This document shows positions 1,083-28,417 of a DNA stretch of 64,000 bases, one piece after another (position 1 is the first letter of the stretch; each line of letters starts with the position of its first letter). The notes below the pieces were generated by a model, which searched no databases, had not been told where the DNA came from, and saw nothing but the letters and a program-made list of their open reading frames with translations. The translations under genes were made by a program, and so were the position numbers. This stretch comes from Escherichia coli. Lineage in GTDB: Bacteria; Pseudomonadota; Gammaproteobacteria; Enterobacterales; Enterobacteriaceae. Location of the stretch: the NCBI RefSeq assembly GCF_030013595.1, contig NZ_CP122768.1; one strand, given 5' to 3'.

Positions 1083-1778
1083 ATGCTGAAGCGTTTCTTT
1101 ATTACCGGTACAGACACTTCTGTAGGGAAAACGGTGGTTTCCCGCGCATTGCTACAAGCGTTAGCCTCCCAGGGAAAAACGGTTGCGGGATATAAACCCG
1201 TAGCAAAGGGGAGCAAAGAGACACCCGAAGGGCTGCGTAATAAAGATGCCCTGGTGTTGCAGAGTGTTTCAACCATCGAACTGCCTTATGAAGCAGTTAA
1301 TCCTATCGCGTTAAGCGAAGAAGAAAGTAGCGTGGCGCACAGTTGCCCAATCAATTACACCCTCATTTCAAACGGCCTGGCAAACCTGACCGATAAAGTC
1401 GATCATGTCGTGGTAGAAGGGACTGGCGGCTGGCGCAGTCTGATGAATGATTTACGTCCGCTCTCTGAATGGGTGGTGCAGGAACAACTGCCGGTGTTGA
1501 TGGTTGTCGGTATTCAGGAAGGTTGCATTAATCATGCACTACTAACAGCTCAGGCGATTGCCAACGACGGGCTGCCGCTCATTGGCTGGGTGGCTAACCG
1601 AATCAATCCAGGACTTGCGCATTATGCGGAAATCATTGATGTGCTGGGTAAAAAACTTCCGGCACCGCTCATTGGTGAACTGCCTTATCTGCCGCGCGCC
1701 GAACAGCGTGAACTGGGGCAATACATCCGCCTAGCTATGCTGCGCAGTGTGCTGGCGGTAGATAGAGTCACGGTGTAA
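1083..1778 (+). CDS. ynfK: Dethiobiotin synthetase paralogue YnfK (BioD2)
   Basis: ATG at 1083 gives [17 protein letters not shown] (BioD-type P-loop). Synteny between mlc and clcB as in K-12. Confidence 0.9.
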
Positions 1779-2987: not shown

Positions 2988-3180
2988 AGTGCGCAGATCC
3001 GGATAGATGTGTAGATGATGCATGAGCAGAAATGGGCAATGAAATACGGGCGACTATTTTGCGGCAAAAGAAGCCAGACGCAAAAGCAGTGCGTGCTTTA
3101 AGAGATAAAAAACGTGACACTGTAACCTATTATTGCCGAATTGCGCCTAATCGACACCATCCGGCAATATTACGGTGATC

Positions 3181-3795
3181 CTATCGAAAGAGTGGTTTAA
3201 CCGCGACAGGAATTAACAGTTGTGATTGCCATTGCGCCAGCGTTAAGCGAGCCAGTTCACCCAGTGCACGGTAGAAAGGGTGTTCTGCTTTTTCGATAAA
3301 AACGTCAAGAAAACGTGTTGACCACGGAAAAAGGTGCCATGCCAGCAATTCTTCGCATTCTGTCTGGCGACCATTCTCCGCCAACCACGCAGCCATCAAC
3401 AGCAGTGAACCAAAATGATCTTCCGGTTCGTTTTGCTTCATTTCAAACTGAATGCCTTTCTCGCGCATCCACTGACGAAGTGCCAATGTTGAATCGCCAA
3501 ACAGCACAGATTCGCGATCCAGCCAGACCGACCCCCACGGCGGTGATGGCAGAGCCCACGGACCGACAAACAAACGCTGCCAGGCCTGGGCGCGAGTCTC
3601 TTCACTCTGTGCCTGAAAAGCCGTCACCAGCGGCGCTAATGACGCTTCTGGTAGAGGCCACTGAGTTTCCCAGCCGTCACGGGTGAGTACCGCAACCAGA
3701 GGTGCGGCTTCCGCACTCTCTGGAGCGTAATAAAACAGCGCGCCCAACACGCGCGCCGCGACAGAAAAATTATCTTGCTGTGAAAAATGGGTCAT
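3181..3795 (-). CDS. dmsD: Tat proofreading chaperone DmsD
   Basis: Start MTHFSQQDNFSV at 3795. Translation recognisable as DmsD (TorD family). Last gene of the ynfEFGH-dmsD operon. Confidence 0.9.
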   Translation of the reverse strand: MTHFSQQDNFSVAARVLGALFYYAPESAEAAPLVAVLTRDGWETQWPLPEASLAPLVTAFQAQSEETRAQAWQRLFVGPWALPSPPWGSVWLDRESVLFGDSTLALRQWMREKGIQFEMKQNEPEDHFGSLLLMAAWLAENGRQTECEELLAWHLFPWSTRFLDVFIEKAEHPFYRALGELARLTLAQWQSQLLIPVAVKPLFR

Positions 3796-3837
3796 TCCTA
3801 ACATCCTGAAATGTGCGGGTTGCCCCGCACCAATTTG

Positions 3838-4692
3838 TTAACCTGCAATAGCCATTCCTACCGTCATGTGCAGGCCATAAAAGAGCACACGCCCGATCAT
3901 CTCACCGCCAAGTATGAGGATTAGCCCCAGAACAAGTCCGGCAACGTGAGGTTCACGGCGACGAATGAGCGGACAAAGCCAGCATCCTAGACCTGCGCAT
4001 AACAATACCACACGCCAGACCTGTAAGGAGGCGTAATCTGGTACCAGTGCGCTGGCTTGTTGTACGGATGAGTGAATAGACGCCAGAGACAAACCTTGCA
4101 GCACAATCACCCCGGCACAAGCGATCAGCGCCAGAACGCTAATGATGGCAAAGGGTGTGGTATTAAATGTAATGCGGGCTGCCCGCAGAATTGCGGCAGC
4201 AAGTATTGGACCGCTCAACAATACTGTCAGGAAGAAAGCCAGCGTAGTGTAACCGTTATGCCAGGTTGGCACTGTGTCGATTTGATACACGCAGGTCATC
4301 ATCCAGACGAAAATGACGCCGAGCGCCATGCTGACAAGTAACCAGAGTTTCCCCAACGCTTGCGGCATTTTACCGATGATCGCCACCAGCCACCATAATC
4401 CGCCAACGGCAAAAAATATGGAACCGGCAGCAATCTCGTTACTCAGACCAGAAGCTCCGATTCGATTCAGCGAGTTAAACGCTCGCAGTGGCGATCCCAG
4501 GTGCATGACAGAGGCAATAAACCCGATGCCCATCAACAGCCAGAGGAAAAACATGCCACGGACAATACGCTGACGGTCTGCGTCATTATTGGCGGCGAAC
4601 CAGCCAATTCCGCTAACAATCAGCGCGCCTACTACGCATTGACCCAATACGGTAAAGATAACCAGTGGCCATTCATGCCATCCATTTCCCAT
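3838..4692 (-). CDS. ynfH: DmsC-type membrane anchor subunit YnfH
   Basis: Start MGNGWHEWPLV at 4692, immediately after the ynfG stop. 284 aa hydrophobic protein. Confidence 0.9.
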   Translation of the reverse strand: MGNGWHEWPLVIFTVLGQCVVGALIVSGIGWFAANNDADRQRIVRGMFFLWLLMGIGFIASVMHLGSPLRAFNSLNRIGASGLSNEIAAGSIFFAVGGLWWLVAIIGKMPQALGKLWLLVSMALGVIFVWMMTCVYQIDTVPTWHNGYTTLAFFLTVLLSGPILAAAILRAARITFNTTPFAIISVLALIACAGVIVLQGLSLASIHSSVQQASALVPDYASLQVWRVVLLCAGLGCWLCPLIRRREPHVAGLVLGLILILGGEMIGRVLFYGLHMTVGMAIAG

Positions 4693-4693
4693 T

Positions 4694-5290
4694 TTACACT
4701 TCCTCCGGATTAGCCAGATAACCAGTGGTATCGCCGGTCGGGCGGCTGTTGGCGTTAGGTTTGATAACGATATTGGGTTTTGTGAAATGCGCGCGCGGTA
4801 GTGGCGCGACGGCAGCCAGAGTGCCGTGCTTCTGGCGCAGCTCTTCAATTGGACCGAACTCAAGTGCACGCAGCGGGCAGGATTCGACACATATGGGTTG
4901 TTTCCCCTCGGCGACGCGCGAATAACAACCATCGCACTTCGTCATGTGTCCTTTTTCAGCATTGTACTGTGGCGCGCCGTACGGACAAGCCATGTGGCAG
5001 TAGCGGCAGCCGATACAAACATCTTCATCAACCACCACAAAGCCATCTTCACGCTTATGCATTGCGCCGCTGGGGCAGACTTTTGTACATGCGGGGTCAT
5101 CGCAATGGTTACAGGAGATGGAGAGATAATAAGCGAACACGTTCTGGTGCCAGACGCCGCCAGCATATTCATAAATACGGCGGAAACTGACTTCCGGGCC
5201 AAGATCTTTAAAATCTTTGCACGCCAGTTCGCAGGTTTTACAGCCAGTACAGCGGCTGGAATCGATAAAAAATCCATATTGTGTGGTCAT
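4694..5290 (-). CDS. ynfG: DmsB-type 4x[4Fe-4S] electron-transfer subunit YnfG (198 aa here)
   Basis: MTTQYGFFIDSSRCTGCKTCELACK plus further Cys clusters. Appears 7 codons shorter than the 205-aa K-12 protein as I remember it (see findings). Confidence 0.88.
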   Translation of the reverse strand: MTTQYGFFIDSSRCTGCKTCELACKDFKDLGPEVSFRRIYEYAGGVWHQNVFAYYLSISCNHCDDPACTKVCPSGAMHKREDGFVVVDEDVCIGCRYCHMACPYGAPQYNAEKGHMTKCDGCYSRVAEGKQPICVESCPLRALEFGPIEELRQKHGTLAAVAPLPRAHFTKPNIVIKPNANSRPTGDTTGYLANPEEV

Positions 5291-5300
5291 GGGCTACTCC

Positions 5301-7784: not shown

Positions 7785-8811
7785 TTATATTTTTTCGATC
7801 TCGACCAGATTAGTGTGCTGCGGGTTTCCCTTCGCCAGTGGTGAAGGGCGCAGAGTGGTTAGCGTATTCACACAGCCGCCATGGTCGATTTTATCGCCAG
7901 ACATATTGGCCTCGTGCCAGGCTCCCTGGCCCATAGCGCTAACCCCAGGGAGAATGCGTGGTGTTACTTTGGCTGGTAGCCGAACTTCGCCACGATGGTT
8001 AAACACCCGCACCATATCGCCGTTGGCAATCCCACGTTTCTGTGCATCTATAGGGTTGATCCACACCTCCTGACGGCAGGCTTCCTTCAGGACATCAATA
8101 TTGCCGTAGGTCGAGTGGGTACGGGATTTGTAATGGAAACCAAACAGTTGCAGTGGGAAGGTTCTACGTTCAGGGGAGTCCCAGCCTTCAAAGGTTGAGG
8201 CATAAACTGGCAGTGGGCTTATCACTTCATCTTTTTCCAGTTCCCAGGTACGGGCAATTTCCGCCAGCTTGCTGGAATAAATTTCAATCTTACCGGAAGG
8301 CGTTTTAAGTGGATTTGCCTCGGGGTCGTCACGAAATGCTTTGTAGGCGACAAAATGACCATTGGGATCTTTACGCTTATAGATACCCATTTTTTTCAGT
8401 TCGTCGTAAGACGGTAACGCCGGATCTTTGGCAAGCATTTTGGCGTACAGATGTTGTAACCATTGTTCCTGCGTGCGACCTTCTGTGAACTTTTGATAGA
8501 CGTCAGGTCCAAGACGTTTCGCGACTTCACTCAGGATCCAGTAAATCGGTTTGCGTTCGAATTTTTCGCTGGTGACTGGCTGAAGGAAAATGAGATATCC
8601 CATGTTACCTGCGTAGTCGTTAGGAATAATATCTTCCTGCTCAACGGTCATCAGGTCTGGCAGCAGAATGTCGGCATATTTTGCCGATGAGGTCATAAAG
8701 TTTTCGATGACCACAATCATTTCGCATTTCGATTCGTCCTGCAGAATTTCATGCGTTTTGTTGATGTCAGAATGCTGATTAACCAGGGTATTTCCCGCGT
8801 AGTTCCAGATG
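7785..8811 (-). pseudogene. ynfE: ynfE 3' fragment (codons after ...KFIWN), separated from its 5' part by the island
   Basis: The translation from NYAGNTLVNQHSDIN to the C-terminus EIEKI is YnfE-like. The N-terminal 49 aa of track ORF 7785..8951 are read-through into island DNA. Confidence 0.9.
8801..8811. repeat. Left copy of 11-bp direct repeat AGTTCCAGATG (att core / target duplication of the island)
   Basis: An identical 11-mer occurs at 18242..18252. Host ynfE sequence continues on the outer side of each copy. Confidence 0.85.
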
Positions 8812-8876
8812 GACTCCACTGTCAGACGGATGGACGGACTTGAAGTAGTTGACTCAACGCTACTTAAGGTCCTGAT

Positions 8877-10485
8877 ATGACTGACATTAACTATGATAAT
8901 ACTGTATATCCATCCAGCTCTTTCTCTGGGTCTCCCTATCTGTATGGGCAAGTCTACACCTCAAGTCCTGACACAAGGCTGACACAAATCAATCTACTCA
9001 GCGTAGCTAAGCCTCAGTTAGTCCGTAGAGCCAATGGTCGATATACTATCCGCTTCAGACTCAAGGGACAGACCACACCGTTTCTTTCAGTATCGACCCG
9101 AAGCACAGACAGGAGAGTAGCCACAATGCGTCAGAGAGAGCTTGCAGCCACAGCTAAGGCCTTCATGTTGGATAGGCCTGAAGTCTCACTACAGGAGCTT
9201 ACAGAGCATCTCCGGTCTATGGCTGAGCAGTTCCTGACAGACGCTAGTGACGATTACTGGAATGGACTTGAGGTCGCTACTTTGGTGGACGAGAAGTCCA
9301 ACCTGAAGGAGCTAGCCGCTACGCAAGCCTTGAGTCTGGACCAGCAGAAGGGCATAAGGTTAGCGCTTGAAGTCCTGACCGCAGCACAGCAGAGGGTAGA
9401 TACTGGTGATACGTCCAGTCTAATCAAGCTGATTGGTGGTGGCGTAAGCCAGCTTACTGATGGAGATGACAATAACCTTACTAATAACTCAACTATATGC
9501 GACTCTACGTTGATTCTGAGGAACGAGCAGGGGGTCAGCCCGCAAGTATTCACGAGAGAGCGCCAACCATCTGTAGTTTTTTCAAGCCTAGTGTCCTCAC
9601 TGCTGGCTGAGAAGGTCCAGACCCTGAAGTCCTCCAGCTACAAGGACCTGTCGTCCTCACTGAATACCGTCTCTCGGTTTCTGCCTGAAGATATGGACCT
9701 GATGTCCCGCTCTGAGTGGCTGGCAGTGAGGGACGCTATGCTGGCTGCTGAGGTGAGACCATCGACAATCAACAAGCTGCTGACCAAAGCGAAGATGTGT
9801 CTCGATTATGGCCTGATGAATGGGCAACTTGAGGGCCGCAACCCTATTGAACGGATGAAGCTGACCAAGGATACCGACTCCAAGCGCAGAGCGTTCACAG
9901 ACGAGGAGCTGGAGAGACTTCTGGTCCGTGTTGAGGCTGAGTATCAGTTCACACGACACACGGCTCACACGACCTCTGAGGCCCGTAGATGGGCGTCTCT
10001 GGTGTCTGTGGTCACTGGCGCGAGGTCTGCTGAGGTCTGCCACCTGACTAAACGTGACGTTGTAACCTTGGACAATGGACTGGTCTGTATCGACATCAAT
10101 GAAGATGGGGACGGGAAGTCTGTGAAGAACAAACATTCAGTCCGACTTGTGCCGTTAACCGATGGGGCCTGTGGTTTCAGCCTGAAGTCCTTCCTCAAAT
10201 GGGTAGACACTCAGCCTGCTGATGGTCCCCTCTTTGGTATGACTCCGAGTGCCTACTCTAGTTGGTTTAACTCTAGGGTCCTGACTGAGGCCCTAGGAGA
10301 CGCTGAGAACGTTTCTCCACAGTCTGAGACATTGGCTGGCGACCCGAATGAAAGAGCGTGGAGTCAATCTGGTGGACGCTCAAGGCATCTTAGGTCACAG
10401 CAGTCAGTCCATTACGTATGACCTGTACGGGAAAGGACACGCTGTTGGTAGGCTGGCTGAGGTGCTGAAGACAGCTTTACTTTAA
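8877..10485 (+). pseudogene. Tyrosine recombinase (integrase) interrupted by a frameshift; ~535 aa if repaired
   Basis: Frame 1 (8877..10421) carries VTGARSAEV (box I Arg) and KNKHSVRLVPL. The catalytic LHSLRHWLATRMKERGVNLVDAQGILGHSSQSITYDLYGKGH is in the +1 frame and ends at 10485. The shift must lie in 10297..10317, probably the TTT run at 10312-10314. Confidence 0.8.
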
Positions 10486-10581
10486 GTAGGAAGACCCAAG
10501 GTGGAGACCATATACGGCTTGATGGTTGAGACCTTGGGTCACTGAAGTCTGACTGAAGTTAGGGAGGGTGATAATAATCAT

Positions 10582-10604
10582 AATCCCTCCTGACTATAGG
10601 CCCA
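10582..10604 (+). promoter_or_regulatory. Phage single-subunit RNAP promoter look-alike AATCCCTCCTGACTATAGGCCCA
   Basis: A GACTATAGG core resembling the T7 CACTATAGG, directly after the hairpin GGAGGGTGAT..ATCATAATCCCTCC downstream of int. Confidence 0.35.
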
Positions 10605-10645
10605 CTGGTTCGCCTTCGGCTGTCCGACTCTAAGTCTGTCTGTGG

Positions 10646-10777
10646 TCTTATTTAAACTGGTTCCCTAACTCAGGTCCTCCAACTTGGTGTCTTATTTAAA
10701 CTGGTTCCCTAACTCAGGTCCTCCAACTTGGTGTCTTATTTAAACTGGTTCCCTAACTCAGGCCCCTCCAAATTTCG
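10646..10777. repeat. Three tandem 44-bp repeats (TCTTATTTAAACTGGTTCCCTAACTCAGGTCCTCCAACTTGGTG; third copy diverges at its 3' end)
   Basis: Units start at 10646, 10690 and 10734. The first two are identical by eye. Confidence 0.9.
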
Positions 10778-10795
10778 TTGTCTGTCAGCGACTTA

Positions 10796-10818
10796 AATAT
10801 CCCCTCACCTTAGAAGAG
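10796..10818 (+). promoter_or_regulatory. Phage-RNAP-type promoter look-alike ATATCCCCTCACCTTAGAAGAGT (type 1, copy 1)
   Basis: Shares ATAyCCCCTCACywTAG with 11426..11448. Predicted +1 at 10813, followed by GAAGAG as at the SP6 promoter start. Confidence 0.5.
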
Positions 10819-10901: not shown

Positions 10902-11402
10902 ATGGCTATTAAAATTCAGTGCTACACCGAGTCCGACAATGCGGCTTTCTTCGGTGACGATTCCGACCTCCAGCACCAGCTACCAGCACCGACATATGAC
11001 GAACCTAAGGCCCGCACAGGTAAGCCTCCTGTGGTCATCGACAACCGGGCTGTCCGTGCGTGGCTGATTGAGACTGGGTGTCTCTCCTATACGCAGCTTG
11101 TTGAGGCGTACCCGTGGGCTGACGATGTGTTCACAGGACTCTCACGGGCTACCAGTGGCGCTGTCGGTGCTGGACTCCCGGTATCTAAGGCGTACCTGTT
11201 CTCTGCCTTATATGGCACCAACGACATCTTCTCCCGTAACACAGCCAAATCCTACGCTGACATCACTGGGCGTTCACCGTCTCCTCGCTACCTGCGCCAC
11301 GTCAATAGCGTGCTTCAGGCTACGGCTGTGAATCTGGCTAAGGTTCTGAAGGACCGAGGGGATTTCACATGGTGGGATTACAACGATCAGTGCCTGTCCT
11401 GA
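10902..11402 (+). CDS. Hypothetical 166-aa protein, first gene downstream of the tandem promoter-like pair
   Basis: ATG preceded by AAGAGGAGGA. No domain I can recognise. Confidence 0.6.
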   Translation: MAIKIQCYTESDNAAFFGDDSDLQHQLPAPTYDEPKARTGKPPVVIDNRAVRAWLIETGCLSYTQLVEAYPWADDVFTGLSRATSGAVGAGLPVSKAYLFSALYGTNDIFSRNTAKSYADITGRSPSPRYLRHVNSVLQATAVNLAKVLKDRGDFTWWDYNDQCLS

Positions 11403-11425: not shown

Positions 11426-11448
11426 AATACCCCCTCACTATAGGGACA
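11426..11448 (+). promoter_or_regulatory. Phage-RNAP-type promoter look-alike AATACCCCCTCACTATAGGGACA (type 1, copy 2)
   Basis: By hand alignment, 18 of 23 positions equal the T3 consensus AATTAACCCTCACTAAAGGGAGA and 16 of 23 equal the T7 consensus TAATACGACTCACTATAGGGAGA. Confidence 0.6.
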
Positions 11449-11451: not shown

Positions 11452-11474
11452 CCTAAACTATCACTATAGGGGGG
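11452..11474 (+). promoter_or_regulatory. Phage-RNAP-type promoter look-alike CCTAAACTATCACTATAGGGGGG (type 2, copy 2)
   Basis: CACTATAGGG core. Its +1 lies 26 bp downstream of that of the previous site, forming a tandem pair like 10796/10833. Confidence 0.55.
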
Positions 11475-11712
11475 ACCAACCTTGCCTCTGCTTCTGATGC
11501 GTCAGAACACGCGAGGTCCTCCCGACATTAAGTATTCTCCTAAGTAATCAAGGCCCGTGACCGCCTCTGACAGACCTCCTGTATCGACCTCCAGCTCGTT
11601 AGCGTTCTTTAGTCGTCTCGGTTAGTAGGTAACCGGCTCATTTAAACCGTCTGGTCTGTTTCCTCCGGCTCTACAAAAATAATGTCCATCATTTTTTAAT
11701 GGACACTATCGT

Positions 11713-12360
11713 ATGAAACACCGGACCTGGATCACTGAAGCTTTACGTCTTCACTTTGAAGAACATTTACCCCGGGTTGTGGCCGGGCGTCGCCTGGGTG
11801 TACCAAAATCAACAGTTTGTAGTATGTTCGTGCGCTTTCGGAGAGCTGGCCTTTCGTGGCCTTTGCCCGCAGGCATGTCGGAGCAGGAACTTGATGCCTG
11901 CCTTTACGGACAATTTTCCACGGTACCAGTCGTACGTCCTGAAAGCACCGTTATATCCGAAGCCCCCGTGGTAAAAAAACGTCCCCGGCGGCCCAACTTC
12001 CCTTATGAGTTTAAAATCGCCTTAGTGGAGCAGTCACTGCAGCCCGGAGCCTGTGTGGCGCAGATCGCCCGGGAAAACGGAATCAACGATAACCTGCTCT
12101 TCAACTGGCGCCATCAATACCGGAAAGGTGGCCTGCTGCCTTCCGGAAAAAATATGCCGGCACTGCTTCCCGTGACGTTAACGCCGGAGCCGGATAATAA
12201 AATCCCGGCCCCCGCACAGGAACCAGAGCAGATAAATACACCGTCCGACAGTCTGTGTTGTGAGCTGGTTCTGCCGGCCGGAACTCTCAGGCTTAAAGGT
12301 AAACTGACGCCGGCGTTATTACAGACACTTATCCGCGAAATAAAAGGGAGCAGCCACTGA
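11713..12360 (+). CDS. tnpA: IS66-family accessory protein TnpA (HTH)
   Basis: 215-aa ORF, first of three. Its stop overlaps the tnpB start (ATGA at 12357-12362). Confidence 0.8.
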   Translation: MKHRTWITEALRLHFEEHLPRVVAGRRLGVPKSTVCSMFVRFRRAGLSWPLPAGMSEQELDACLYGQFSTVPVVRPESTVISEAPVVKKRPRRPNFPYEFKIALVEQSLQPGACVAQIARENGINDNLLFNWRHQYRKGGLLPSGKNMPALLPVTLTPEPDNKIPAPAQEPEQINTPSDSLCCELVLPAGTLRLKGKLTPALLQTLIREIKGSSH

Positions 12361-12707
12361 TGATATCTCTCCCTGCAGGTTCGCGTATCTGGCTGGTTGC
12401 AGGTATCACCGATATGCGAAATGGCTTTAACGGCCTGGCATCAAAAGTTCAGAACGTCCTGAAGGATGACCCGTTCTCCGGACACCTGTTCATCTTCCGC
12501 GGACGCCGGGGTGACCAGATAAAAGTGTTGTGGGCTGACAGTGACGGACTGTGCCTCTTCACCAAACGCCTGGAGCGGGGCCGCTTCGTCTGGCCAGTCA
12601 CCCGTGACGGCAAGGTGCACCTTACTCCGGCTCAGTTATCCATGCTTCTTGAAGGTATCAACTGGAAGCACCCGAAACGAACGGAACGCGCTGGAATCCG
12701 CATATAA
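12360..12707 (+). CDS. tnpB: IS66-family TnpB (Orf2)
   Basis: 115 aa, MISLPAGSRIWLVAGITDMRNGFNGLA..., typical IS66 Orf2. Confidence 0.88.
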   Translation: MISLPAGSRIWLVAGITDMRNGFNGLASKVQNVLKDDPFSGHLFIFRGRRGDQIKVLWADSDGLCLFTKRLERGRFVWPVTRDGKVHLTPAQLSMLLEGINWKHPKRTERAGIRI

Positions 12708-12726
12708 CCCGTTGTAAAGTGAGGAT

Positions 12727-14298
12727 ATGGACACCTCACTTGCTCATGAGAACGCCCGCCTGCGGGCACTGTTGCAGACGCAACAGGACACCATCCGCCA
12801 GATGGCTGAATACAACCGCCTGCTCTCACAGCGGGTGGCGGCTTATGCTTCCGAAATCAACCGGCTGAAGGCGCTGGTTGCGAAACTGCAACGTATGCAG
12901 TTCGGTAAAAGCTCAGAAAAACTTCGTGCAAAAACCGAACGGCAGATACAGGAAGCACAGGAGCGAATCAGCGCACTTCAGGAAGAAATGGCGGAAACGC
13001 TGGGTGAGCAATATGACCCGGTACTGCCATCCGCCCTGCGCCAGTCTTCAGCCCGTAAACCGTTACCGGCCTCACTTCCCCGTGAAACCCGGGTTATCCG
13101 GCCGGAAGAGGAATGCTGTCCTGCCTGTGGTGGTGAACTCAGTTCTCTGGGATGTGATGTGTCAGAGCAACTGGAGCTTATCAGCAGCGCCTTTAAGGTT
13201 ATCGAAACACAACGTCCGAAACAGGCCTGTTGCCGGTGCGACCATATCGTACAGGCACCAGTACCTTCAAAACCCATTGCACGCAGTTATGCCGGAGCGG
13301 GGCTTCTGGCCCATGTTGTCACCGGGAAATATGCAGACCATCTGCCGTTATACCGCCAGTCAGAAATATACCGTCGTCAGGGAGTGGAGCTGAGCCGTGC
13401 CACACTGGGGCGCTGGACAGGTGCTGTTGCTGAACTGCTGGAGCCGCTGTATGACGTCCTGCGCCAGTATGTGCTGATGCCCGGTAAAGTCCATGCTGAT
13501 GATATCCCCGTCCCGGTCCAGGAGCCGGGCAGCGGTAAAACCCGGACAGCCCGGCTGTGGGTCTACGTCCGTGATGACCGTAACGCCGGTTCACAGATGC
13601 CCCCGGCGGTCTGGTTCGCGTACAGTCCGGACCGGAAAGGTATCCATCCACAAAATCACCTGGCCGGTTACAGCGGTGTGCTTCAGGCCGATGCTTACGG
13701 TGGTTACCGGGCGTTATACGAATCCGGCAGAATAACGGAAGCCGCGTGTATGGCTCATGCCCGGAGAAAAATCCACGATGTGCATGCAAGAGCGCCCACC
13801 TACATCACCACGGAAGCCCTGCAGCGTATCGGTGAACTGTATGCCATCGAGGCAGAGGTCCGGGGCTGTTCAGCAGAACAGCGTCTGGCGGCAAGAAAAG
13901 CCAGAGCCGCGCCACTGATGCAGTCACTGTATGACTGGATACAGCAACAGATGAAAACACTGTCGCGTCACTCAGATACGGCAAAAGCGTTCGCATACCT
14001 GCTGAAACAGTGGGATGCACTGAACGTGTACTGCAGTAATGGCTGGGTGGAAATCGACAACAACATCGCAGAGAACGCCTTACGGGGAGTGGCCGTAGGC
14101 CGGAAAAACTGGATGTTCGCGGGTTCCGACAGCGGTGGTGAACATGCGGCGGTGTTGTACTCGCTGATCGGCACATGCCGTCTGAACAATGTGGAGCCAG
14201 AAAAGTGGCTGCGTTACGTCATTGAACATATCCAGGACTGGCCGGCAAACCGGGTACGCGATCTGTTGCCCTGGAAAGTTGATCTGAGCTCTCAGTAA
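12727..14298 (+). CDS. tnpC: IS66-family DDE transposase TnpC
   Basis: 523 aa with N-terminal leucine-zipper-like region, CxxC zinc motif ([12 protein letters not shown]) and DDE core, typical of IS66 transposases. Confidence 0.9.
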
Positions 14299-14582
14299 AT
14301 ATCAATACGGTTCTGACGAGTCGCTTACGTTAGTAGCTCGTCTACTCACTACATTGGCTTAAGTCTATCACCGCTCACCATCTGGAGTCCTTACAGCTCG
14401 TCCTGACATGCGGTCTCACCTTATATGCACATGGAGAACATGGCCACTCCAGACCAACACTAATCAACATTAACCCTATTCACTTTCGTTAAGCATTTTT
14501 TGGTGGGTCCGTTTGGATGCATTGAATAGGTGCGGACTCCACGTGGAGACAGAAAGTGCTTTACTAAAGGAGCATCCTTTAT

Positions 14583-14972
14583 ATGACTATTAAATCCATC
14601 GTTATCAACGGTAAGACCATCCTGTCTACACCTAACGCCATCAATGAGGGTGTCTGGTTCGACATGCTTGAGGTCCATCAAGCTGCTGGCTTGCCTGCTA
14701 ACAAGACGTTCTCACAGTGGCGCAGCCGACAGTCTCGTGCATTAGAAGAGGCTGGAGAGGTGTCGTTTGACAGTGTACAGAAGACCCTGTGTGGCAGCTT
14801 TGTGGCAGTGCTGGCCTACCTTATGTGGGCGGACCTTACTCTCTGGCTGGCGGTGGTTCGTTACGTTGCGTCTGAGACTATCGGCGTCCTGCCTGACCGC
14901 TTCAAGTCTATCGACGGTGATAACCCCGAGTTAGAAATGTCAGAGGATAACAGCGAGTGGGAGGACTTCTAA
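14583..14972 (+). CDS. KilA-N-like domain protein (129 aa) with acidic C-terminal tail ending ...SEDNSEWEDF
   Basis: SD TAAAGGAG. The N-terminus is paralogous to the next ORF (both have GLPA[NS]K..S[QE]W). See finding on the tail. Confidence 0.6.
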   Translation: MTIKSIVINGKTILSTPNAINEGVWFDMLEVHQAAGLPANKTFSQWRSRQSRALEEAGEVSFDSVQKTLCGSFVAVLAYLMWADLTLWLAVVRYVASETIGVLPDRFKSIDGDNPELEMSEDNSEWEDF

Positions 14973-14973: not shown

Positions 14974-15714
14974 ATGACCATGAGCCAGCTTGAAGCATTA
15001 CCTATCGTCATCGAGGGTCATTCATTCATCTGCAACGACCAGCGCATGTGGAACCTGAACGAGATTCACCGAGTGTTAGGTCTTCCAGCAAGCAAGATGC
15101 CGTCTGAGTGGAATAACAAGATTCGCACACAACTTGACCGCTCCGGAAATTTCCGGACCGTGAATGGTGACGGCGGTGGTACATGGGCGACCGAGGCTGG
15201 GACCGTGGCTTATGCTATGTGGGTCTCTACAGATTTCTACCTGATGGTCATCAATGCTTTCATCTTTATGCGTAACGACGCAATCGTCCGAGAGCGTGTA
15301 GCGGTCAAACAGGCTGACGAGGCTAACGCTAACCTCTCCATCGCAGCACCTAAGGCAGACATCTTTGACGGTCGTCTGACCAATGGTGGCTCTGTTCCGT
15401 GGAACTGGGCGTGTAAATCTTTGGGTCTTGCCCCGATGAAACTGAAAGAGGGCTTGAAGCGCTCCGGTAAGTTCGTCCAGAAGTGGAACCCTGACAGTTA
15501 CGCCGACGAGCTTCGACCTCAGGAGAAGGCGTTCAGTATTGGACTATTCGTCACTAAGTCAGTCATGGGTAAAGACACATGGCAGGTGACAGCTAAAGGC
15601 TACGCATGGATGCAGGGGAACGCCCAGAAGTGGAGAGAGCTAATAGCTGATGGTGACCGCTTAAAGGCTGCTGAGCGTCGAGCACAGAAGCGTCTTAACC
15701 GTGGAGGTAAGTAG
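14974..15714 (+). CDS. KilA-N N-terminal / ANT-like C-terminal (antirepressor-type) DNA-binding protein, 246 aa
   Basis: N-terminal pattern IEGHSF..MWNLNEIHRVLGLPASK..GGGTWATEAGTVAYAMWVS fits KilA-N. The C-terminal LGLAPMKLKEGLKRSGKF...QVTAKGYAWM fits the ANT C-terminal pattern as I remember it. Starts 1 nt after the previous stop. Confidence 0.6.
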   Translation: MTMSQLEALPIVIEGHSFICNDQRMWNLNEIHRVLGLPASKMPSEWNNKIRTQLDRSGNFRTVNGDGGGTWATEAGTVAYAMWVSTDFYLMVINAFIFMRNDAIVRERVAVKQADEANANLSIAAPKADIFDGRLTNGGSVPWNWACKSLGLAPMKLKEGLKRSGKFVQKWNPDSYADELRPQEKAFSIGLFVTKSVMGKDTWQVTAKGYAWMQGNAQKWRELIADGDRLKAAERRAQKRLNRGGK

Positions 15715-15716: not shown

Positions 15717-15941
15717 ATGGCTATGATTGACCCTCGTACACCTATCGGCAAAGCGACCCTTCGTTACCGTGGTCTGCCTACACGTCATCTGCTGTCCCTG
15801 CTGAGACTTGGAGTCGAAGACCCCGAACGCCCGTACTACAGTCGAGACGAGCTAATAGCTATGTTGGTGGACCGTGATTTAGACAATCAGTTACGCCGAG
15901 CCTTTGCGAAGTCTAGCGCAGCTAGGGAACTGGAGTCCTGA
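15717..15941 (+). CDS. Hypothetical 74-aa protein
   Basis: ATG 2 nt after the previous stop, SD GGAGGTAAG. No recognisable domain. Confidence 0.5.
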   Translation: MAMIDPRTPIGKATLRYRGLPTRHLLSLLRLGVEDPERPYYSRDELIAMLVDRDLDNQLRRAFAKSSAARELES

Positions 15942-16146: not shown

Positions 16147-16638
16147 ATGTTATTCAACAACAACGACTGGAAACTATCAGTCACCGACATCAATCCCTAT
16201 GAAAATACTGTGAGTCTGGACGGTCAGTCCTATCCGCTGTCTCTGGCGATTAAGACCCTGATTCCGGGCTACCTGTCAGGCTTACCGTCCACCAGCCGCG
16301 AGGCGATGGAGTTACTGGAAGCTCTGGCTGAAGCTGGCGTGTCCATTGGCAACTTCTTCAGTAATGACCTGATGACCGCCTATGGTCGCCGCCAGCAGAA
16401 CAAGCGAGCCGAAGCTGAGCGTATTGCTAAAGAGCAGCGCATTCAGGCTGAGCGTATGCGTGAAGAGAACATGACTGATGCAGAGTGGCAGAAAGAGCTA
16501 CAGCGCCGTGAACAGGTCAAAGCTGAACGCCGGACCTATGGTGAGCACCTCCGCAGTGCTACCCATTCCGCTGGGCGCTCCCGTGCTTCTATGGTCGCTG
16601 ACATTGAGTCCACGGACAACTGGATGGACAGCCTCTAA
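16147..16638 (+). CDS. Scaffold-like coiled-coil protein (163 aa)
   Basis: SD AGGAG. The charged heptad-like stretch RRQQNKRAEAERIAKEQRIQAERMREENMTDAEWQKELQRREQVKAERR sits immediately upstream of the capsid-like gene. Function is inferred from position and composition only. Confidence 0.4.
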   Translation: MLFNNNDWKLSVTDINPYENTVSLDGQSYPLSLAIKTLIPGYLSGLPSTSREAMELLEALAEAGVSIGNFFSNDLMTAYGRRQQNKRAEAERIAKEQRIQAERMREENMTDAEWQKELQRREQVKAERRTYGEHLRSATHSAGRSRASMVADIESTDNWMDSL

Positions 16639-16713
16639 GACACAGACACACAAGTGGTCCTGACCTGATGTCGGGACCCACAGTATCCAAACTAATTTAG
16701 GAGATTGATTATT

Positions 16714-17700
16714 ATGACGATTAAAGACGCTTTCCAGTTCGGCATTGAGCCAGTACGTATCAGCGACACCGACAACATTCAGATTAACGAAGGTTTGCCA
16801 ACTAACGCAGACCCGCAGGTCTATGCCCTCCAGTTAGCTAAGACGGTTAAGGCTATGCTGAACGGTGTACTTAAAGACGCTCAAGAGAACATCCCGTTCC
16901 CTGTAGAAGTCCTGCCGACCCGCAATAGCCTGCCTACTCCAATCATTGCTCACACTCTGGCTGATCGCTCTGTGGTCGTTCCTGTCCGTGGTGGTAAGCG
17001 ACCTGAAGTCGTGACCGTTCCGTCTGGACAAGAAATCGTGGTCGAACCAATCGAGCAGGCTATTCTCATCTCTGAGCAGACCAAGCTCTGGGACGCCAAG
17101 TCATCCACCGGATTCACTCAGGGCACACTTCAGCAGGACGCTATGAACATCTGTGAGAATGTGGTCCGTACCATCAACGCTCGCATGGTCGACGTTCTGG
17201 AGTCCTCCAAACTGTTGAAGACCGTAGAGCTGCCAGTCCTGACTGGAAGCCTGACCACTAAGGCAGACGCTATCATGGACGCTCTGTTTGAGAACACCGA
17301 GTCCTCTTTCGGCTCTGAAGTGTCTGATTACGGCATCATCGCCCATGAGTCCCAACTGAAAGCGCTGTCCCGTCTGGCAGCTAAACAGGGCTTCTCTGGT
17401 GGAGACGCTATCGTGGATATGCTGGGTACCGACATCGCCTATTACAACGGTGAAGACAAGGGTGTATTCATGCTGGCTAAACGCTTCACGGCCCTGAGCT
17501 TCGGCTGCTTCCGTCACGACGGTGAGAATATTACGGTCGTCCTTTCACGTGATGGCGACTCTCAGTCCCACGACTTGGAAATCCTCGGTAAAGTGTTCGT
17601 TGTCGCTGAAGCTGCTACGACCATCAAGATGGGCACTGGCTCAGCTACTGCCGTCCTGCCTGTAGTCAAACGCCTGAAGTTCACCAAGACCGAAGCGTAA
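16714..17700 (+). CDS. Putative HK97-fold major capsid protein (328 aa)
   Basis: ATG at 16714 after TAGGAG. Size and the C-terminal pattern (GIIAHESQLKAL...MLGTDIAYYNGEDKGVFMLAKRFTALSF...ITVVLSRDGDSQSHDLEILGKVFVVAEAA) resemble HK97-type coat proteins. No obvious similarity to T7 gp10 by eye. Confidence 0.45.
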   Translation: MTIKDAFQFGIEPVRISDTDNIQINEGLPTNADPQVYALQLAKTVKAMLNGVLKDAQENIPFPVEVLPTRNSLPTPIIAHTLADRSVVVPVRGGKRPEVVTVPSGQEIVVEPIEQAILISEQTKLWDAKSSTGFTQGTLQQDAMNICENVVRTINARMVDVLESSKLLKTVELPVLTGSLTTKADAIMDALFENTESSFGSEVSDYGIIAHESQLKALSRLAAKQGFSGGDAIVDMLGTDIAYYNGEDKGVFMLAKRFTALSFGCFRHDGENITVVLSRDGDSQSHDLEILGKVFVVAEAATTIKMGTGSATAVLPVVKRLKFTKTEA

Positions 17701-17844: not shown

Positions 17845-18000
17845 ATGTCTATGACTTCCGCAGACCTAAGGTCCCTCCTGACTCTGGTCTATAAACTCGT
17901 GTTCCTCTCTGTGGGTCTCTACATGGTTCTCTCTGGTCGACTCGGTGTGGATGTGTTCGACACTCTGTCTAAGGCTGTGGGTGGACTTCTAGGTCCTTAG
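17845..18000 (+). CDS. 51-aa hydrophobic peptide (one or two TM segments)
   Basis: Not in the ORF track (<60 aa). ATG at 17845 preceded by GAAGGAGGA. MSMTSADLRSLLTLVYKLVFLSVGLYMVLSGRLGVDVFDTLSKAVGGLLGP. Confidence 0.45.
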   Translation: MSMTSADLRSLLTLVYKLVFLSVGLYMVLSGRLGVDVFDTLSKAVGGLLGP

Positions 18001-18241
18001 GTTTGGACTCACAGTGGGACCGATGATTTCTGACAGAAAAATGTGAATGACCATCTAATACATTAAGCCAGCAGACTTCCCCCCATAGTCCCGCCTCAAG
18101 TCCAGACCGAGGCCACCGGGGGTCCTGACCAGCCGTCTAGACATCCCGTCTAATGACACAAGTCTGGCACAAAGCCTGACACAAAGTCCTTGACTCAATG
18201 CAGGACCTCAGGCCTACTAAGGGTCCGCTTCAAGTCCTTGA

Positions 18242-18252
18242 AGTTCCAGATG
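18242..18252. repeat. Right copy of 11-bp direct repeat AGTTCCAGATG
   Basis: Identical to 8801..8811. Confidence 0.85.
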
Positions 18253-19652
18253 AACTTAATGGGCACATCCAGTTTATCTTTGCCGCGGACGCCGTCGCGG
18301 ATTGCCGTCATTTGCGGGCCATGATCGATAGCATCCGTCCAGCTGAAGCAGGAGATTGACGTTTTGACCGGATTATCCAGCACCGGTAGGCGTTCTATGG
18401 TAATGGTATAGGTCGATTCACGCGCGCCACTATTCCCGCCGCTGATGCCGACATTGCCCGTCAAAATAGGCAACATAGCAATAGCGCGTGCGGTCAGCTC
18501 ACCGTTTGCCTGGCGTTGCGGCCCCCAGCCCTGGCAGATATAAGCGGGTTTTGCTGTGCCAATTTCACGCGCCAGTTTGATGATACGGTCCACCGGGATA
18601 CCGGTAATTTGCGAAGCCCACTGCGGCGTTTTCGCTGTTTTATCGTCACCTTCACCAAGAATATAGGCTTTATAGTGACCATTTTTTGGTGCATCTGCGG
18701 GTAAGGTTTTTTCGTCATAGCCGACGCAGTATTTATCAAGAAAAGGTTGATCAACGAGATTTTCGTTAATCAATACCCAGGCAATACCCGCAACCAGCGC
18801 GGCATCGGTGCCCGGGCGAATAGGAAGCCATTCGTCTTCACGACCGGCAGCCGTATCGGTATATCGCGGATCGATAACAATCATTTTTGCGTTCGATTTC
18901 TCGCGCGCTTTTTCAAGAAGATAAGTGATGCCACCACCGCTCATGCGGGTTTCTGCCGGGTTGTTACCAAACATCACGACCAGCTTGCTGTTTTCAATAT
19001 CCGTGGTGCTGTTGCCATCATTACTGCCGTAGGTGTAGGGCATGGCACAGGAAATTTGCGCGGTGCTGTAGGAGCCATACTGGTTGAGTGAGCCGCCGTA
19101 GCAGTTCATCAGGCGTTTGACCGCCGAGGCGGATGGCGAAGAGCGGGTCATATTGCCGCCAACAATCCCCGAAGAGTACTGAATATATACAGCCTCATTG
19201 TCATATTGTTCGACGGTTTTTTTCAGGCTACTGGCGATAGTATCCAGGGCTTCATCCCAGCTAATCCGTTCGAATTTGCCTTCGCCGCGTTTGCCCACGC
19301 GTTTCATTGGGTAATTCAAGCGGTCGGGATGATTAATACGCCGACGGATGGAGCGACCGCGCAAACAGGCGCGTACTTGATGATTGCCATACTCATCGCT
19401 GCCGGTGTTGTCAGTTTCCACCCAGGTCACTTCATTATCTTTAACATGCAGACGAAGTGCACAGCGGCTACCACAGTTGACGGAACAGGCACCCCAGACC
19501 ACTTTCTCGCTGGCCTGTTGTACTGCTGCCGCTGCACTGCGCAGGGTGAACGGTAAAGAAAAACCGCCTGCAGCCAGCGCCAGAGAACCTATCGCGGTAG
19601 ATTTAACGAGTGTTCTGCGGCTGATGCCCACCATTTGTTCATTTTTGGACAT
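18242..19652 (-). pseudogene. ynfE: ynfE 5' fragment (Tat signal through ...KLDVPIKFIWN)
   Basis: MSKNEQMVGISRRTLVKSTAIGSLALAAGG..., DmsA/YnfF paralogue. Track ORF 18195..19652 ends with 16 island-encoded residues. Confidence 0.9.
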
Positions 19653-25831: not shown

Positions 25832-27403
25832 TTACTGAGAGCTCAGATCAACTTTCCAGGGCAACAGATCGCGTACCCGGTTTGCCGGCCAGTCCTGGAT
25901 ATGTTCAATGACGTAACGCAGCCACTTTTCTGGCTCCACATTGTTCAGACGGCATGTGCCGATCAGCGAGTACAACACCGCCGCATGTTCACCACCGCTG
26001 TCGGAACCCGCGAACATCCAGTTTTTCCGGCCTACGGCCACTCCCCGTAAGGCGTTCTCTGCGATGTTGTTGTCGATTTCCACCCAGCCATTACTGCAGT
26101 ACACGTTCAGTGCATCCCACTGTTTCAGCAGGTATGCGAACGCTTTTGCCGTATCTGAGTGACGCGACAGTGTTTTCATCTGTTGCTGTATCCAGTCATA
26201 CAGTGACTGCATCAGTGGCGCGGCTCTGGCTTTTCTTGCCGCCAGACGCTGTTCTGCTGAACAGCCCCGGACCTCTGCCTCGATGGCATACAGTTCACCG
26301 ATACGCTGCAGGGCTTCCGTGGTGATGTAGGTGGGCGCTCTTGCATGCACATCGTGGATTTTTCTCCGGGCATGAGCCATACACGCGGCTTCCGTTATTC
26401 TGCCGGATTCGTATAACGCCCGGTAACCACCGTAAGCATCGGCCTGAAGCACACCGCTGTAACCGGCCAGGTGATTTTGTGGATGGATACCTTTCCGGTC
26501 CGGACTGTACGCGAACCAGACCGCCGGGGGCATCTGTGAACCGGCGTTACGGTCATCACGGACGTAGACCCACAGCCGGGCTGTCCGGGTTTTACCGCTG
26601 CCCGGCTCCTGGACCGGGACGGGGATATCATCAGCATGGACTTTACCGGGCATCAGCACATACTGGCGCAGGACGTCATACAGCGGCTCCAGCAGTTCAG
26701 CAACAGCACCTGTCCAGCGCCCCAGTGTGGCACGGCTCAGCTCCACTCCCTGACGACGGTATATTTCTGACTGGCGGTATAACGGCAGATGGTCTGCATA
26801 TTTCCCGGTGACAACATGGGCCAGAAGCCCCGCTCCGGCATAACTGCGTGCAATGGGTTTTGAAGGTACTGGTGCCTGTACGATATGGTCGCACCGGCAA
26901 CAGGCCTGTTTCGGACGTTGTGTTTCGATAACCTTAAAGGCGCTGCTGATAAGCTCCAGTTGCTCTGACACATCACATCCCAGAGAACTGAGTTCACCAC
27001 CACAGGCAGGACAGCATTCCTCTTCCGGCCGGATAACCCGGGTTTCACGGGGAAGTGAGGCCGGTAACGGTTTACGGGCTGAAGACTGGCGCAGGGCGGA
27101 TGGCAGTACCGGGTCATATTGCTCACCCAGCGTTTCCGCCATTTCTTCCTGAAGTGCGCTGATTCGCTCCTGTGCTTCCTGTATCTGCCGTTCGGTTTTT
27201 GCACGAAGTTTTTCTGAGCTTTTACCGAACTGCATACGTTGCAGTTTCGCAACCAGCGCCTTCAGCCGGTTGATTTCGGAAGCATAAGCCGCCACCCGCT
27301 GTGAGAGCAGGCGGTTGTATTCAGCCATCTGGCGGATGGTGTCCTGTTGCGTCTGCAACAGTGCCCGCAGGCGGGCGTTCTCATGAGCAAGTGAGGTGTC
27401 CAT
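25832..27403 (-). CDS. tnpC: IS66-family DDE transposase TnpC (copy 2)
   Basis: 523 aa, identical to 12727..14298. Confidence 0.9.
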
Positions 27404-27422: not shown

Positions 27423-27770
27423 TTATATGCGGATTCCAGCGCGTTCCGTTCGTTTCGGGTGCTTCCAGTTGATACCTTCAAGAAGCATGGATAACTGAGC
27501 CGGAGTAAGGTGCACCTTGCCGTCACGGGTGACTGGCCAGACGAAGCGGCCCCGCTCCAGGCGTTTGGTGAAGAGGCACAGTCCGTCACTGTCAGCCCAC
27601 AACACTTTTATCTGGTCACCCCGGCGTCCGCGGAAGATGAACAGGTGTCCGGAGAACGGGTCATCCTTCAGGACGTTCTGAACTTTTGATGCCAGGCCGT
27701 TAAAGCCATTTCGCATATCGGTGATACCTGCAACCAGCCAGATACGCGAACCTGCAGGGAGAGATATCAT
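27423..27770 (-). CDS. tnpB: IS66-family TnpB (copy 2)
   Basis: 115 aa, identical to 12360..12707. Confidence 0.88.
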   Translation of the reverse strand: MISLPAGSRIWLVAGITDMRNGFNGLASKVQNVLKDDPFSGHLFIFRGRRGDQIKVLWADSDGLCLFTKRLERGRFVWPVTRDGKVHLTPAQLSMLLEGINWKHPKRTERAGIRI

Positions 27771-28417
27771 CAGTGGCTGCTCCCTTTTATTTCGCGGATA
27801 AGTGTCTGTAATAACGCCGGCGTCAGTTTACCTTTAAGCCTGAGAGTTCCGGCCGGCAGAACCAGCTCACAACACAGACTGTCGGACGGTGTATTTATCT
27901 GCTCTGGTTCCTGTGCGGGGGCCGGGATTTTATTATCCGGCTCCGGCGTTAACGTCACGGGAAGCAGTGCCGGCATATTTTTTCCGGAAGGCAGCAGGCC
28001 ACCTTTCCGGTATTGATGGCGCCAGTTGAAGAGCAGGTTATCGTTGATTCCGTTTTCCCGGGCGATCTGCGCCACACAGGCTCCGGGCTGCAGTGACTGC
28101 TCCACTAAGGCGATTTTAAACTCATAAGGGAAGTTGGGCCGCCGGGGACGTTTTTTTACCACGGGGGCTTCGGATATAACGGTGCTTTCAGGACGTACGA
28201 CTGGTACCGTGGAAAATTGTCCGTAAAGGCAGGCATCAAGTTCCTGCTCCGACATGCCTGCGGGCAAAGGCCACGAAAGGCCAGCTCTCCGAAAGCGCAC
28301 GAACATACTACAAACTGTTGATTTTGGTACACCCAGGCGACGCCCGGCCACAACCCGGGGTAAATGTTCTTCAAAGTGAAGACGTAAAGCTTCAGTGATC
28401 CAGGTCCGGTGTTTCAT
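27770..28417 (-). CDS. tnpA: IS66-family TnpA (copy 2)
   Basis: 215 aa, identical to 11713..12360. Confidence 0.8.
   Translation of the reverse strand: MKHRTWITEALRLHFEEHLPRVVAGRRLGVPKSTVCSMFVRFRRAGLSWPLPAGMSEQELDACLYGQFSTVPVVRPESTVISEAPVVKKRPRRPNFPYEFKIALVEQSLQPGACVAQIARENGINDNLLFNWRHQYRKGGLLPSGKNMPALLPVTLTPEPDNKIPAPAQEPEQINTPSDSLCCELVLPAGTLRLKGKLTPALLQTLIREIKGSSH

Follow-up and report, generated by a model that had tools for sequence, protein, structure and literature searches.

A scaffold-like and capsid-like gene pair in an Escherichia coli island with T7-type promoters and junction sequences: head module of a probable satellite of T7-like phages

Results

An integrative island in ynfE carries a scaffold-like and a capsid-like gene

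We analysed a 64,000-nucleotide stretch of an Escherichia coli chromosome (the window; contig NZ_CP122768.1 of assembly GCF_030013595.1) in which two adjacent genes, orf163 and orf328, lie within an integrated island. All island genes are on the plus strand, as are the other features of the island described below. A preliminary description of the stretch had proposed that this is a scaffold and HK97-like coat gene pair in an element of about 6.7 kb that lacks portal, protease and terminase genes, and each of these structural points agrees with what we find. The open reading frames (ORFs) encode 163 amino acids (aa; 16147–16638) and, after a 75-nt spacer, 328 aa from an ATG at 16714 (16714–17700); an alternative TTG start at 16705 would give a 331-aa product. 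Searches of Pfam, PHROGs and NCBIfam with the island ORFs, all of which are too small for such proteins, returned no portal, protease or terminase; the same searches gave no match to AlpA or to a primase-replicase, and the island has no ORF of RNA-polymerase size. The intact unit, taken from strain PM4-5 (locus L001; NZ_CP096834, 329,914–336,560), measures 6,646 bp.

The insertion is flanked by ynfF, split ynfE, ynfD, ynfC, speG and rspAB, and its edges are imperfect 15-bp direct repeats: an attL core AGTTCCAGATGGACT (8801–8815) inside the split ynfE and an attR core AGTTCCAGATGAACT (18242–18256), with one mismatch between them. The same pair of repeats borders the intact copies L001 and L010. 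The window island is 9,441 bp long including an IS66-family insertion sequence (IS), which is missing from the otherwise 98–99% identical L001. A 453-aa tyrosine integrase (9060–10421; PHROG 1 integrase, E = 6e-24, and the RefSeq annotation of its L001 homologue) is the first gene. Upstream of the pair are orf129 (14583–14972), which is KilA-N-like (28% identical to the orf246 N-domain, E = 5e-9), orf246 (14974–15714), with KilA-N and ANT domains of the antirepressor type that belongs to the Bro network (Pfam KilA-N 1.7e-5, ANT 2e-4; PHROG 63 Ant 9e-11), and orf74 (15717–15941), a small conserved protein whose relatives have ORFs of 56–107 aa at the same position.

orf328 is a capsid-like protein of an undescribed sequence family

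Neither Pfam, PHROGs, NCBIfam nor PADLOC contains a match to orf328, so that no library assigns it any other function, and there is no sequence match in the PDB; 50,697 phage genomes were likewise without a tblastn match. When 1.8 billion representative proteins were searched with a profile, 66 relatives emerged, about 33 of them full-length at 20–41% identity. No Pfam, PHROG or NCBIfam model, the Pfam phage-coat and encapsulin models (including Linocin_M18) among them, matches the core domain of any of 43 family members. AlphaFold models built from close homologues only had a predicted local distance difference test score (pLDDT) of 48, and deepening the alignment raised this to 85, with a predicted template modelling score of 0.79. 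Foldseek searches with this model gave 205 viral and 234 PDB matches at E ≤ 1e-3, which are coats and encapsulins, and the best phage matches include the T7-like coats phiIBB-PF7A gp10B, Kp9, HRP29 and PhiM1. The model contains an N-arm, an E-loop, a P-domain with a spine helix, and an A-domain. The HK97-like fold that had been proposed from size and C-terminal pattern is therefore confirmed at the level of structural modelling, and we regard orf328 as an HK97-fold major-capsid-like protein whose sequence family, judging from these searches, is described in none of the libraries. The reported absence of similarity to T7-type gp10 also stands, as hhalign gives a probability of 0.1% when the family profile is compared with Kayfunavirus gp10. 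One homologue ends in an Ig-like domain of the Big_2 type at its C-terminus; proteins on virion surfaces are often decorated in this way.

The scaffold-like partner, orf163, has the highly charged segment noted previously: 47% of the 57 residues from 79 to 135 are charged (15 K/R and 12 D/E), and this helix region is kept in the family alignment. In nine further loci the gene immediately upstream of the coat gene encodes a homologue of 127–165 aa; at L023 the partner position is occupied by a 185-aa protein with no phmmer match to orf163. Members of the partner family have an N-domain of about 75 residues, which reaches Pfam DUF6971 in some of them, followed by the charged helix region and a short tail. 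orf163 itself has the DUF6971-type N-domain but, like orf328, is matched by no entry of Pfam, PHROGs, NCBIfam or PADLOC, by no PDB sequence and by no tblastn alignment in the phage genomes. It is not similar to T7-group gp9, and the family scans show no enzyme domain in it. Its position, composition and co-inheritance with the coat fit the role of a scaffolding protein.

The gene pair is conserved in small elements of constant size

The orf163–orf328 pair is present in 309 of 5,426 complete E. coli genomes (about 6%), always on the chromosome and at 76–100% nucleotide identity. The islands occupy at least two attachment sites, one in ynfE and the other at a tRNA-Gly gene beside actS and ETT2; the tRNA-Gly type includes islands of enterohaemorrhagic E. 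coli (EHEC) strains. Among seven divergent island copies the ratio of nonsynonymous to synonymous substitution rates (dN/dS) is 0.05–0.22 for orf328 and 0.11–0.39 for orf163, with dS of up to about 1.3. Because these ratios are well below 1, we conclude that both are real genes under purifying selection.

Coat relatives at 23–41% identity share a common layout, in which an integrase is followed by a Bro-N/KilA-N/Rha/ANT gene, one to three small ORFs, the partner and the coat, and in these neighbourhoods partner and coat are the sole head genes. This layout is seen in Enterobacterales (including E. coli), in Aeromonas hydrophila, in other Gammaproteobacteria and in metagenomes. In five divergent members the unit bounded by direct repeats (15–19 bp) is 6,372, 6,495, 6,583, 6,617 and 6,646 bp long. 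The length is steady although the gene after the integrase differs among variants, being orf166 in the window (10902–11402; no family match), orf122 in L001 and orf155 in L010. The tRNA-Gly variants L008 (3645–4304) and L009 (6346–6999) have a DUF4145 gene right after the integrase, with an 8-nt overlap in L008, and the L008 gene scores as the anti-T7 defence gene PD-T7-4 (PADLOC E = 1e-102). PD-T7-4 was experimentally selected for anti-T7 activity, and such genes "often overlap an integrase gene" (10.1101/2022.05.12.491691). This slot may also host further defence genes.

The module has a different setting in L020, a 5.3-kb metagenomic contig, where the small ORF, partner and coat (within 3–5298) follow genes for T7 gp16-like and gp15-like internal virion proteins; L020 may come from a genuine podophage or from a satellite of larger size with the same coat family. 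Many other island copies have insertions of IS66, IS21 or IS3. We considered Logan contigs of island length (6.4–7.8 kb) as candidate free circles and rejected them, as the L004 sequence stops just beyond the att repeats and its termini do not overlap. An additional 80-aa Gly/Pro-rich ORF (MGKSISKG...GLNISRTSG), absent from the window, is positioned right after the coat gene in L004 (5844–6086) and L010 (about 10569–10810), and could encode a decoration or internal protein.

Tandem promoters of T7-like phage types precede the late genes

Three T7 cues, namely the scaffold-then-coat gene order, the context of L020 and the PD-T7-4 cargo, prompted a scan for T7-type promoters. Two such promoters lie in tandem just 3' of orf166: P1, AATACCCCCTCACTATAGGGACA (11426–11448), is of the T3/SH4/GW1 type, and P2, CCTAAACTATCACTATAGGGGGG (11452–11474), is of the Kayfunavirus type. 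The sequence TCACTATAGGG occurs twice in the window against an expectation of 0.02, and the strict core CACTATAG[GA]G is found 27 times in 14 islands, always on the gene strand, and not once in 162 kb of flanking DNA. The P1 core ACCCTCACTATAGGGA recurs in T7-like genomes of 39.7–39.9 kb; Cronobacter phage GW1 has this type of core, and Citrobacter phages SH4 and SH5 are among the records that match. As to the P2 type, sister islands have the 20-mer AAACTATCACTATAGGGAGA, which is matched exactly in 17 viral contigs of 39–40.5 kb. The contig compared with GenBank phages (L029) corresponds to Kayfunavirus vB_EcoP_F, and 17 matching records are named Kayfunavirus. In vB_EcoP_F the matching site is the promoter immediately upstream of gene 10 (phi10).

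From their sequences the two promoters differ in specificity, one being Kayfunavirus-type and the other T3/SH4-type, and this would let one island exploit several T7-like genera. Islands without the strict core have other repeated T7-like variants, such as the six copies of ..CACTAATGGGAGAC in L017 (6480–8386) and the three of TAAACCCCGACTATAGAGAG in L003 (7751–7806 and 11463). In L023 (5811–6434) the promoter-like sequence GCCACCAAAATTTGGATGCGCAC, which is not T7-like in appearance, occurs three times; the repeated units of these three distant islands are 20–36-mers. Since distant islands have promoter-like repeats of their own, their helpers presumably have other polymerase specificities, and the exact promoter variants of L002 and L022 were not found in IMG/VR. 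Given the helper-type promoters and the lack of an RNA polymerase gene in the island, the late operon appears to be built for the polymerase of an infecting T7-like phage.

In the window copy the IS66 element (11629–14328), which comprises tnpA, tnpB and a gene for a 523-aa transposase and is bordered by an 8-bp target duplication, is not part of the island proper. It lies between the late operon and the promoters P1 and P2, and with it the unit grows to 9.4 kb. This copy may be impaired as a result, although T7-type polymerases may still read through the IS. Neither the IS66 interruption nor the T7-type promoters had been recognised in the preliminary description.

A T7-type junction is divided between the two island ends

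Relaxed blastn searches of the island DNA against phages returned T7-like genomes only. Near the right end, a segment at 18029–18099 resembles the concatemer junction of T7-group phages, with a predicted left-end cut just before TCTAATACATT at 18054. Over 64 nt it is 75% identical to the Dickeya phage JA10 junction, scoring 33 against 10.2 ± 1.3 for shuffled sequences (z = 17), and the JA10 segment itself aligns to base 1 of T7. For the tRNA-Gly islands an equally good match (z = 16.5) is to the vB_EclP_26 junction, from an Enterobacter phage. The motif TGA...|TCT(A/C)A(T/C)A...CCCCCATAG is also present in L001, L008, L009, L010 and the distant L003.

A second sequence, CTCTGGGTCTCCCTATCTGTAT (8924–8947), is located just inside attL and upstream of the integrase start, and resembles the right edge of a T7-type terminal repeat, of the class-II pause type. 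Its motif CTCTG.GTC..TATCTGT matches T7 positions 149–167, where the 160-bp terminal repeat ends, and phages vB_EclP_26 and JA10 have it at the corresponding site. It is found once in the 64-kb window, and is present also in L001, L010 and L011, an IMG/VR locus that bears the island promoters and the hairpin described below. The junction mimic and the terminal-repeat-end motif are 9 kb apart in the integrated island and would be about 330 bp apart in the excised circle, with attP between them. They thus appear, on sequence grounds, to form a T7-type terminal-repeat and junction module that is split by attP and rebuilt only on excision or in concatemers.

Repeats of the GACACAAGGCTGACACAAA type (8962–8988) and of the GACACAAG type (18147–18185) belong to one repeat family, D3, and are probably integrase arm sites at the left end and arm-site-like at the right. 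Sequences of the form GACACAAG(G/T)CTG(A/G)CACAAA lie near both island ends, within the stretch that becomes the terminal-repeat-like module on excision.

The island also shares a hairpin with T7-like phages, GGAGGG-TGATAATAATCATAAT-CCCTCC (28 nt; 10563–10591; in full GGAGGGTGATAATAATCATAATCCCTCC). It corresponds over 28–32 nt, at 96–100% identity, to unannotated sequence in about 140 Kayfunavirus-type genomes, where it is located about 0.3–0.7 kb from the right end in records that begin at the physical end; in phage phiYIO1-1 it has an HNH endonuclease gene on one side and a small ORF on the other. The hairpin is identical in L004, an island only about 82% identical overall, and it may have a role in packaging, replication or RNA processing.

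Discussion

The gene pair as the head module of a T7-like phage satellite

We think that the orf163–orf328 pair is probably the head module of a small integrative satellite of virulent T7-like podophages (Studiervirinae), and for the window copy those of the Kayfunavirus and T3/SH4 types. Such a satellite would build its own small head; we infer that particles form and that they package island DNA. The dependence on a helper that had been proposed earlier is supported by the T7-like phage-RNA-polymerase promoters and the terminase-junction mimic predicted in the island, and because the island carries these, the likeness to the T7 gene order 9–10 can be taken to reflect the probable helper.

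In the mechanism we propose, the RNA polymerase of an infecting T7-like phage would turn on the late operon (the KilA-N/ANT genes, orf74, orf163 and orf328), and the excised island may be replicated by the phage replisome starting in the promoter region, as happens at T7 origins. A small procapsid of orf163 and orf328 would be assembled on the helper portal and core, the helper terminase would cut at the junction mimic and package a unit-length, terminally redundant genome of about 7 kb, and the addition of helper tails would finish the particle. Once in a new cell, the integrase would be read by host RNA polymerase as the first gene after the predicted left end, mirroring the early region of T7, and the element would then integrate in ynfE or at tRNA-Gly. 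Several properties of T7 are pertinent to this scheme. T7 origins are T7 promoters, the terminase cuts concatemers at specific junctions, maturation needs RNA polymerase to pause at the junction 'ATCTGTT' site, and plasmids that contain a T7 origin and junction get packaged.

We estimate that a 7-kb genome would fill a T7-size head to only about 17%, which offers a rationale for a dedicated coat. Scaling from the 40 kb of T7 in a shell of triangulation number T=7, a T=1 head would hold about 2 kb and a T=3 head 11–12 kb, and the latter would also accommodate the IS-bearing copies of 9–9.5 kb. Putting these elements together, we see about an even chance that the island is organised as a miniature T7, with a junction split by attP, a host-read 'early' integrase, and a helper-read 'late' operon that ends in an HK97 pair of an undescribed family and supplies a small head of its own, possibly T=3, built onto the portal and core of the helper, and that it is the first recognised satellite of T7-like phages.

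Several observations weigh against the interpretation as a head-forming satellite. Particles, excision, replication and transfer are all deduced from sequence, and the island has no recognisable replication gene or excisionase. T7-like phages degrade host DNA fast, and there would therefore be little time for excision. The strongest structural matches of orf328 are encapsulins and not phage capsids, and the assignment of orf163 as a scaffold draws on position, composition and co-conservation. There is no detectable similarity between the coat and helper gp10 or between the scaffold-like protein and helper gp9, so that their fit to a T7-type portal and core is conjectural. By our estimate a genome of about 7 kb suits none of the standard head sizes well. 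The terminal-repeat-end motif was detected in ynfE-type islands alone and not in the tRNA-Gly variants L008 and L009, and the IS insertions in many copies, including that in the window, could mean decay.

Alternative explanations

An alternative explanation, which we consider unlikely but far from negligible, is that the pair serves interference or size redirection, with orf328 and orf163, overexpressed by the phage polymerase, co-assembling or competing with helper gp10, gp9 and gp8. The outcome would be either poisoned phage heads, acting as a population-level defence, or small helper capsids, as with SaPIbov5 Ccm. The PD-T7-4 defence cargo in the island family and the wiring of expression to the polymerase of the infecting phage suit such a role, as does the finding that a lone capsid gene is common in Gram-negative PICIs (chromosomal islands that phages induce) and dispensable for their transfer (PMC10111431). 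However, the island coat has its own scaffold-like partner, which co-evolves with it down to about 23% identity and suggests a self-contained shell, and the junction mimic together with the constant unit of about 6.5 kb points to packaging of the island and not only to blocking of the phage. Nor does orf328 resemble the helper coat in sequence, whereas Ccm is recognisably a homologue of its helper's coat. Interference could plausibly coexist with self-packaging, and we regard it as the less complete explanation.

It is improbable that the island is instead a 'mini virus' or virus-like particle, that is, an HK97-fold element without portal or tail whose genome is packaged or exported without helper head-completion proteins. 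Such a mode of spread has been proposed for 8.9-kb elements of the human gut with capsid, scaffold and integrase genes. Temperate elements of 5–11.6 kb that encode capsid and scaffold, lack portal, terminase and tail, and have encapsulin-like coats have been described (10.1101/2025.06.18.659913), and the best structural matches of orf328 are likewise encapsulins. Those elements encode RepA or a helicase, whereas the island has no recognisable replication gene; helper-derived T7-group promoters and a terminase junction would be needless for an autonomous element; and Pfam phage-coat and encapsulin models match none of the 43 family members.

The structural matches also raise the idea of an encapsulin-type nanocompartment, carried as an accessory trait of a mobile island with orf163 as its cargo, to which we give still less credence. 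Despite the high similarity in fold, no member matches Linocin_M18 or another Pfam coat model, and orf163 has no enzyme domain, having instead a scaffold-like charged helix and short tail. Furthermore, the pair is the invariant core of a constant-size, integrase-bounded element under phage-polymerase promoters, and one homologue adjoins T7 gp15/16-like virion genes. That the pair is a decaying, functionless remnant of a phage or capsid-forming PICI (cfPICI) head module is barely credible, for although many copies contain IS elements (IS66 here) and host annotation offers only 'hypothetical protein', purifying selection is strong despite dS of about 1, the minimal architecture and size persist to hosts as distant as Aeromonas, and cis elements are kept exactly, as with the hairpin that is identical in islands of about 82% identity.

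Relationship to known satellites

We know of no experimentally characterised satellite of T7-like phages. Chen and Schneider reportedly described, in 2006, enterobacterial 'T7-like promoter islands' of 4–13 kb, with a tyrosine integrase upstream, two or three tandem T7-like promoters, terminal direct repeats and no RNA polymerase gene, whose few downstream genes were left without a function; these are said to have been proposed as satellites activated by a T7-like phage, a class to which the preliminary description made no reference. In its tandem promoters, integrase, direct repeats, size and enterobacterial host, the island presumably belongs to this class. It differs from the reported class in its HK97 coat, scaffold-like partner, attP-spanning junction mimic and shared hairpin, and also in its defence cargo and its spread to Aeromonas and other Gammaproteobacteria. 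We found no report in the searchable literature that links such islands to capsid or scaffold genes or to T7-group junctions, nor any of the hairpin, the defence cargo or the spread to these other hosts.

Among satellites that form capsids, cfPICIs such as EcCI2 also encode a portal, protease, head-tail connectors, small terminase, alpA and primase, and take only tails from the helper. The island, at roughly half their size, lacks those genes and would depend on its helper for the portal, core and terminase as well as the tail. P4 uses Sid, an external scaffold, to remodel the helper coat, and SaPIbov5 Ccm is a recognisable homologue of the helper coat with which it co-assembles. Unlike Ccm, orf328 has no helper-coat similarity (0.1% by hhalign) and comes with a dedicated scaffold-like partner. 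The island does resemble SaPIbov5 with its Ccm, and Gram-negative PICIs with a lone capsid gene, in that a satellite encodes an HK97-fold protein without the rest of a head module (PMC10111431), and Gram-negative PICIs are also similar in having a late coat gene and a region of genes from the Bro-N network (PMC10111431). However, Gram-negative PICIs have an integrase, alpA and a primase-replicase in 10–20 kb, and in the island the last two are absent and the unit is 6.6 kb.

PLE, a parasite of phage ICP1, PICMI of the Vibrionaceae and P4 are, like the island, small integrative phage parasites that are phage-activated, carry defence cargo and are packaged by a helper. PLE reportedly remodels the helper coat with an external scaffold (TcaP) and PICMI lacks capsid genes and packages concatemers, and none of the three is known to be driven by helper-polymerase promoters or to encode its own coat.

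Two other groups also encode a coat and a scaffold. The EPIPs of Mycolicibacterium are 11-kb satellites with a capsid and a scaffolding protein, and neither a portal nor a large terminase is among their listed genes; MiniFlayer, MulchRoom and Phanie are named with them as other coat-encoding satellites (PMC12822802). EPIPs have a small terminase, head-tail adaptors, a tape measure, a serine integrase and a temperate siphovirus helper (PMC12822802), whereas genes for packaging or connectors are absent from the island, which probably depends on a virulent podovirus of the T7-like kind. The mini viral genomes of Aguilar et al. (10.1101/2025.06.18.659913) are likewise small and temperate with capsid, scaffold and integrase and without portal, terminase or tail. 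They come from the human gut, average 8.9 kb, have RepA or helicases and coats that Pfam detects, and are not reported, in the sections consulted, to have helper signals (10.1101/2025.06.18.659913); by contrast, the island coat matches no Pfam model and its T7-group cis signals point to a helper. The island is set apart from known satellites by the combination of a two-gene head module, an undescribed HK97 family, probable virulent T7-like helpers, helper-polymerase wiring and an attP-split junction.

If the satellite interpretation is correct, about 6% of complete E. coli genomes, including those of EHEC, and many Gammaproteobacteria contain an element that senses T7-like infection through the phage polymerase, probably lowers the yield of phage, bears cargo directed against phages (PD-T7-4, for example) and travels in a capsid of its own. 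Its head module would be the smallest known for a satellite, with two genes that have to work with the portal, core and terminase of another element. Few phages are understood as well as T7 and its relatives, which have wide use in biotechnology and phage therapy. A new capsid family that is structurally near encapsulins is also relevant to the setting of capsid size and to the relationship between capsids and encapsulins.

Other features of the window

The window also includes a lambdoid prophage, at about 28,000–64,000, which we considered as a helper and rejected, since the island has no cos site and the two have only chance 13–18-mers in common. The prophage itself has a canonical lambda cos, GGGCGGCGACCT, at 50409, and its ORF sizes fit the lambda head-tail order, with 641 aa (51118–53043) at the large terminase position and 533 aa (53243–54844) at the portal position. 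An 859-aa ORF (60946–63525) has the size of a tape measure protein; the three putative identities follow from ORF size and order.

Within the island, scans for sigma-70 promoters and intrinsic terminators gave chance-level results, a scan with Rfam gave no match, and RNA folding of the spacers was not significant (z of about -1 to -1.6). Between the integrase and orf166, just 3' of the hairpin, are three tandem 44-nt repeats (10645–10776), two of them identical and one at 80%, for which iteron-like or regulatory roles are possible. Downstream of orf328, orf51 (17845–18000) encodes a small hydrophobic protein that is conserved in L001, L004 and L010.

A likely second copy of the same IS family is located at about 25.8–28.4 kb on the minus strand, with ORFs of 523 aa (25832–27403) and 215 aa (27770–28417). 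At the integration site, ynfE is a paralogue of ynfF, a gene for a selenate/DMSO reductase subunit, and the island leaves two ynfE pseudogene fragments (7785–8800 and 18257–19652). Because the island splits ynfE, its carriers at this site are without an intact copy of the gene.

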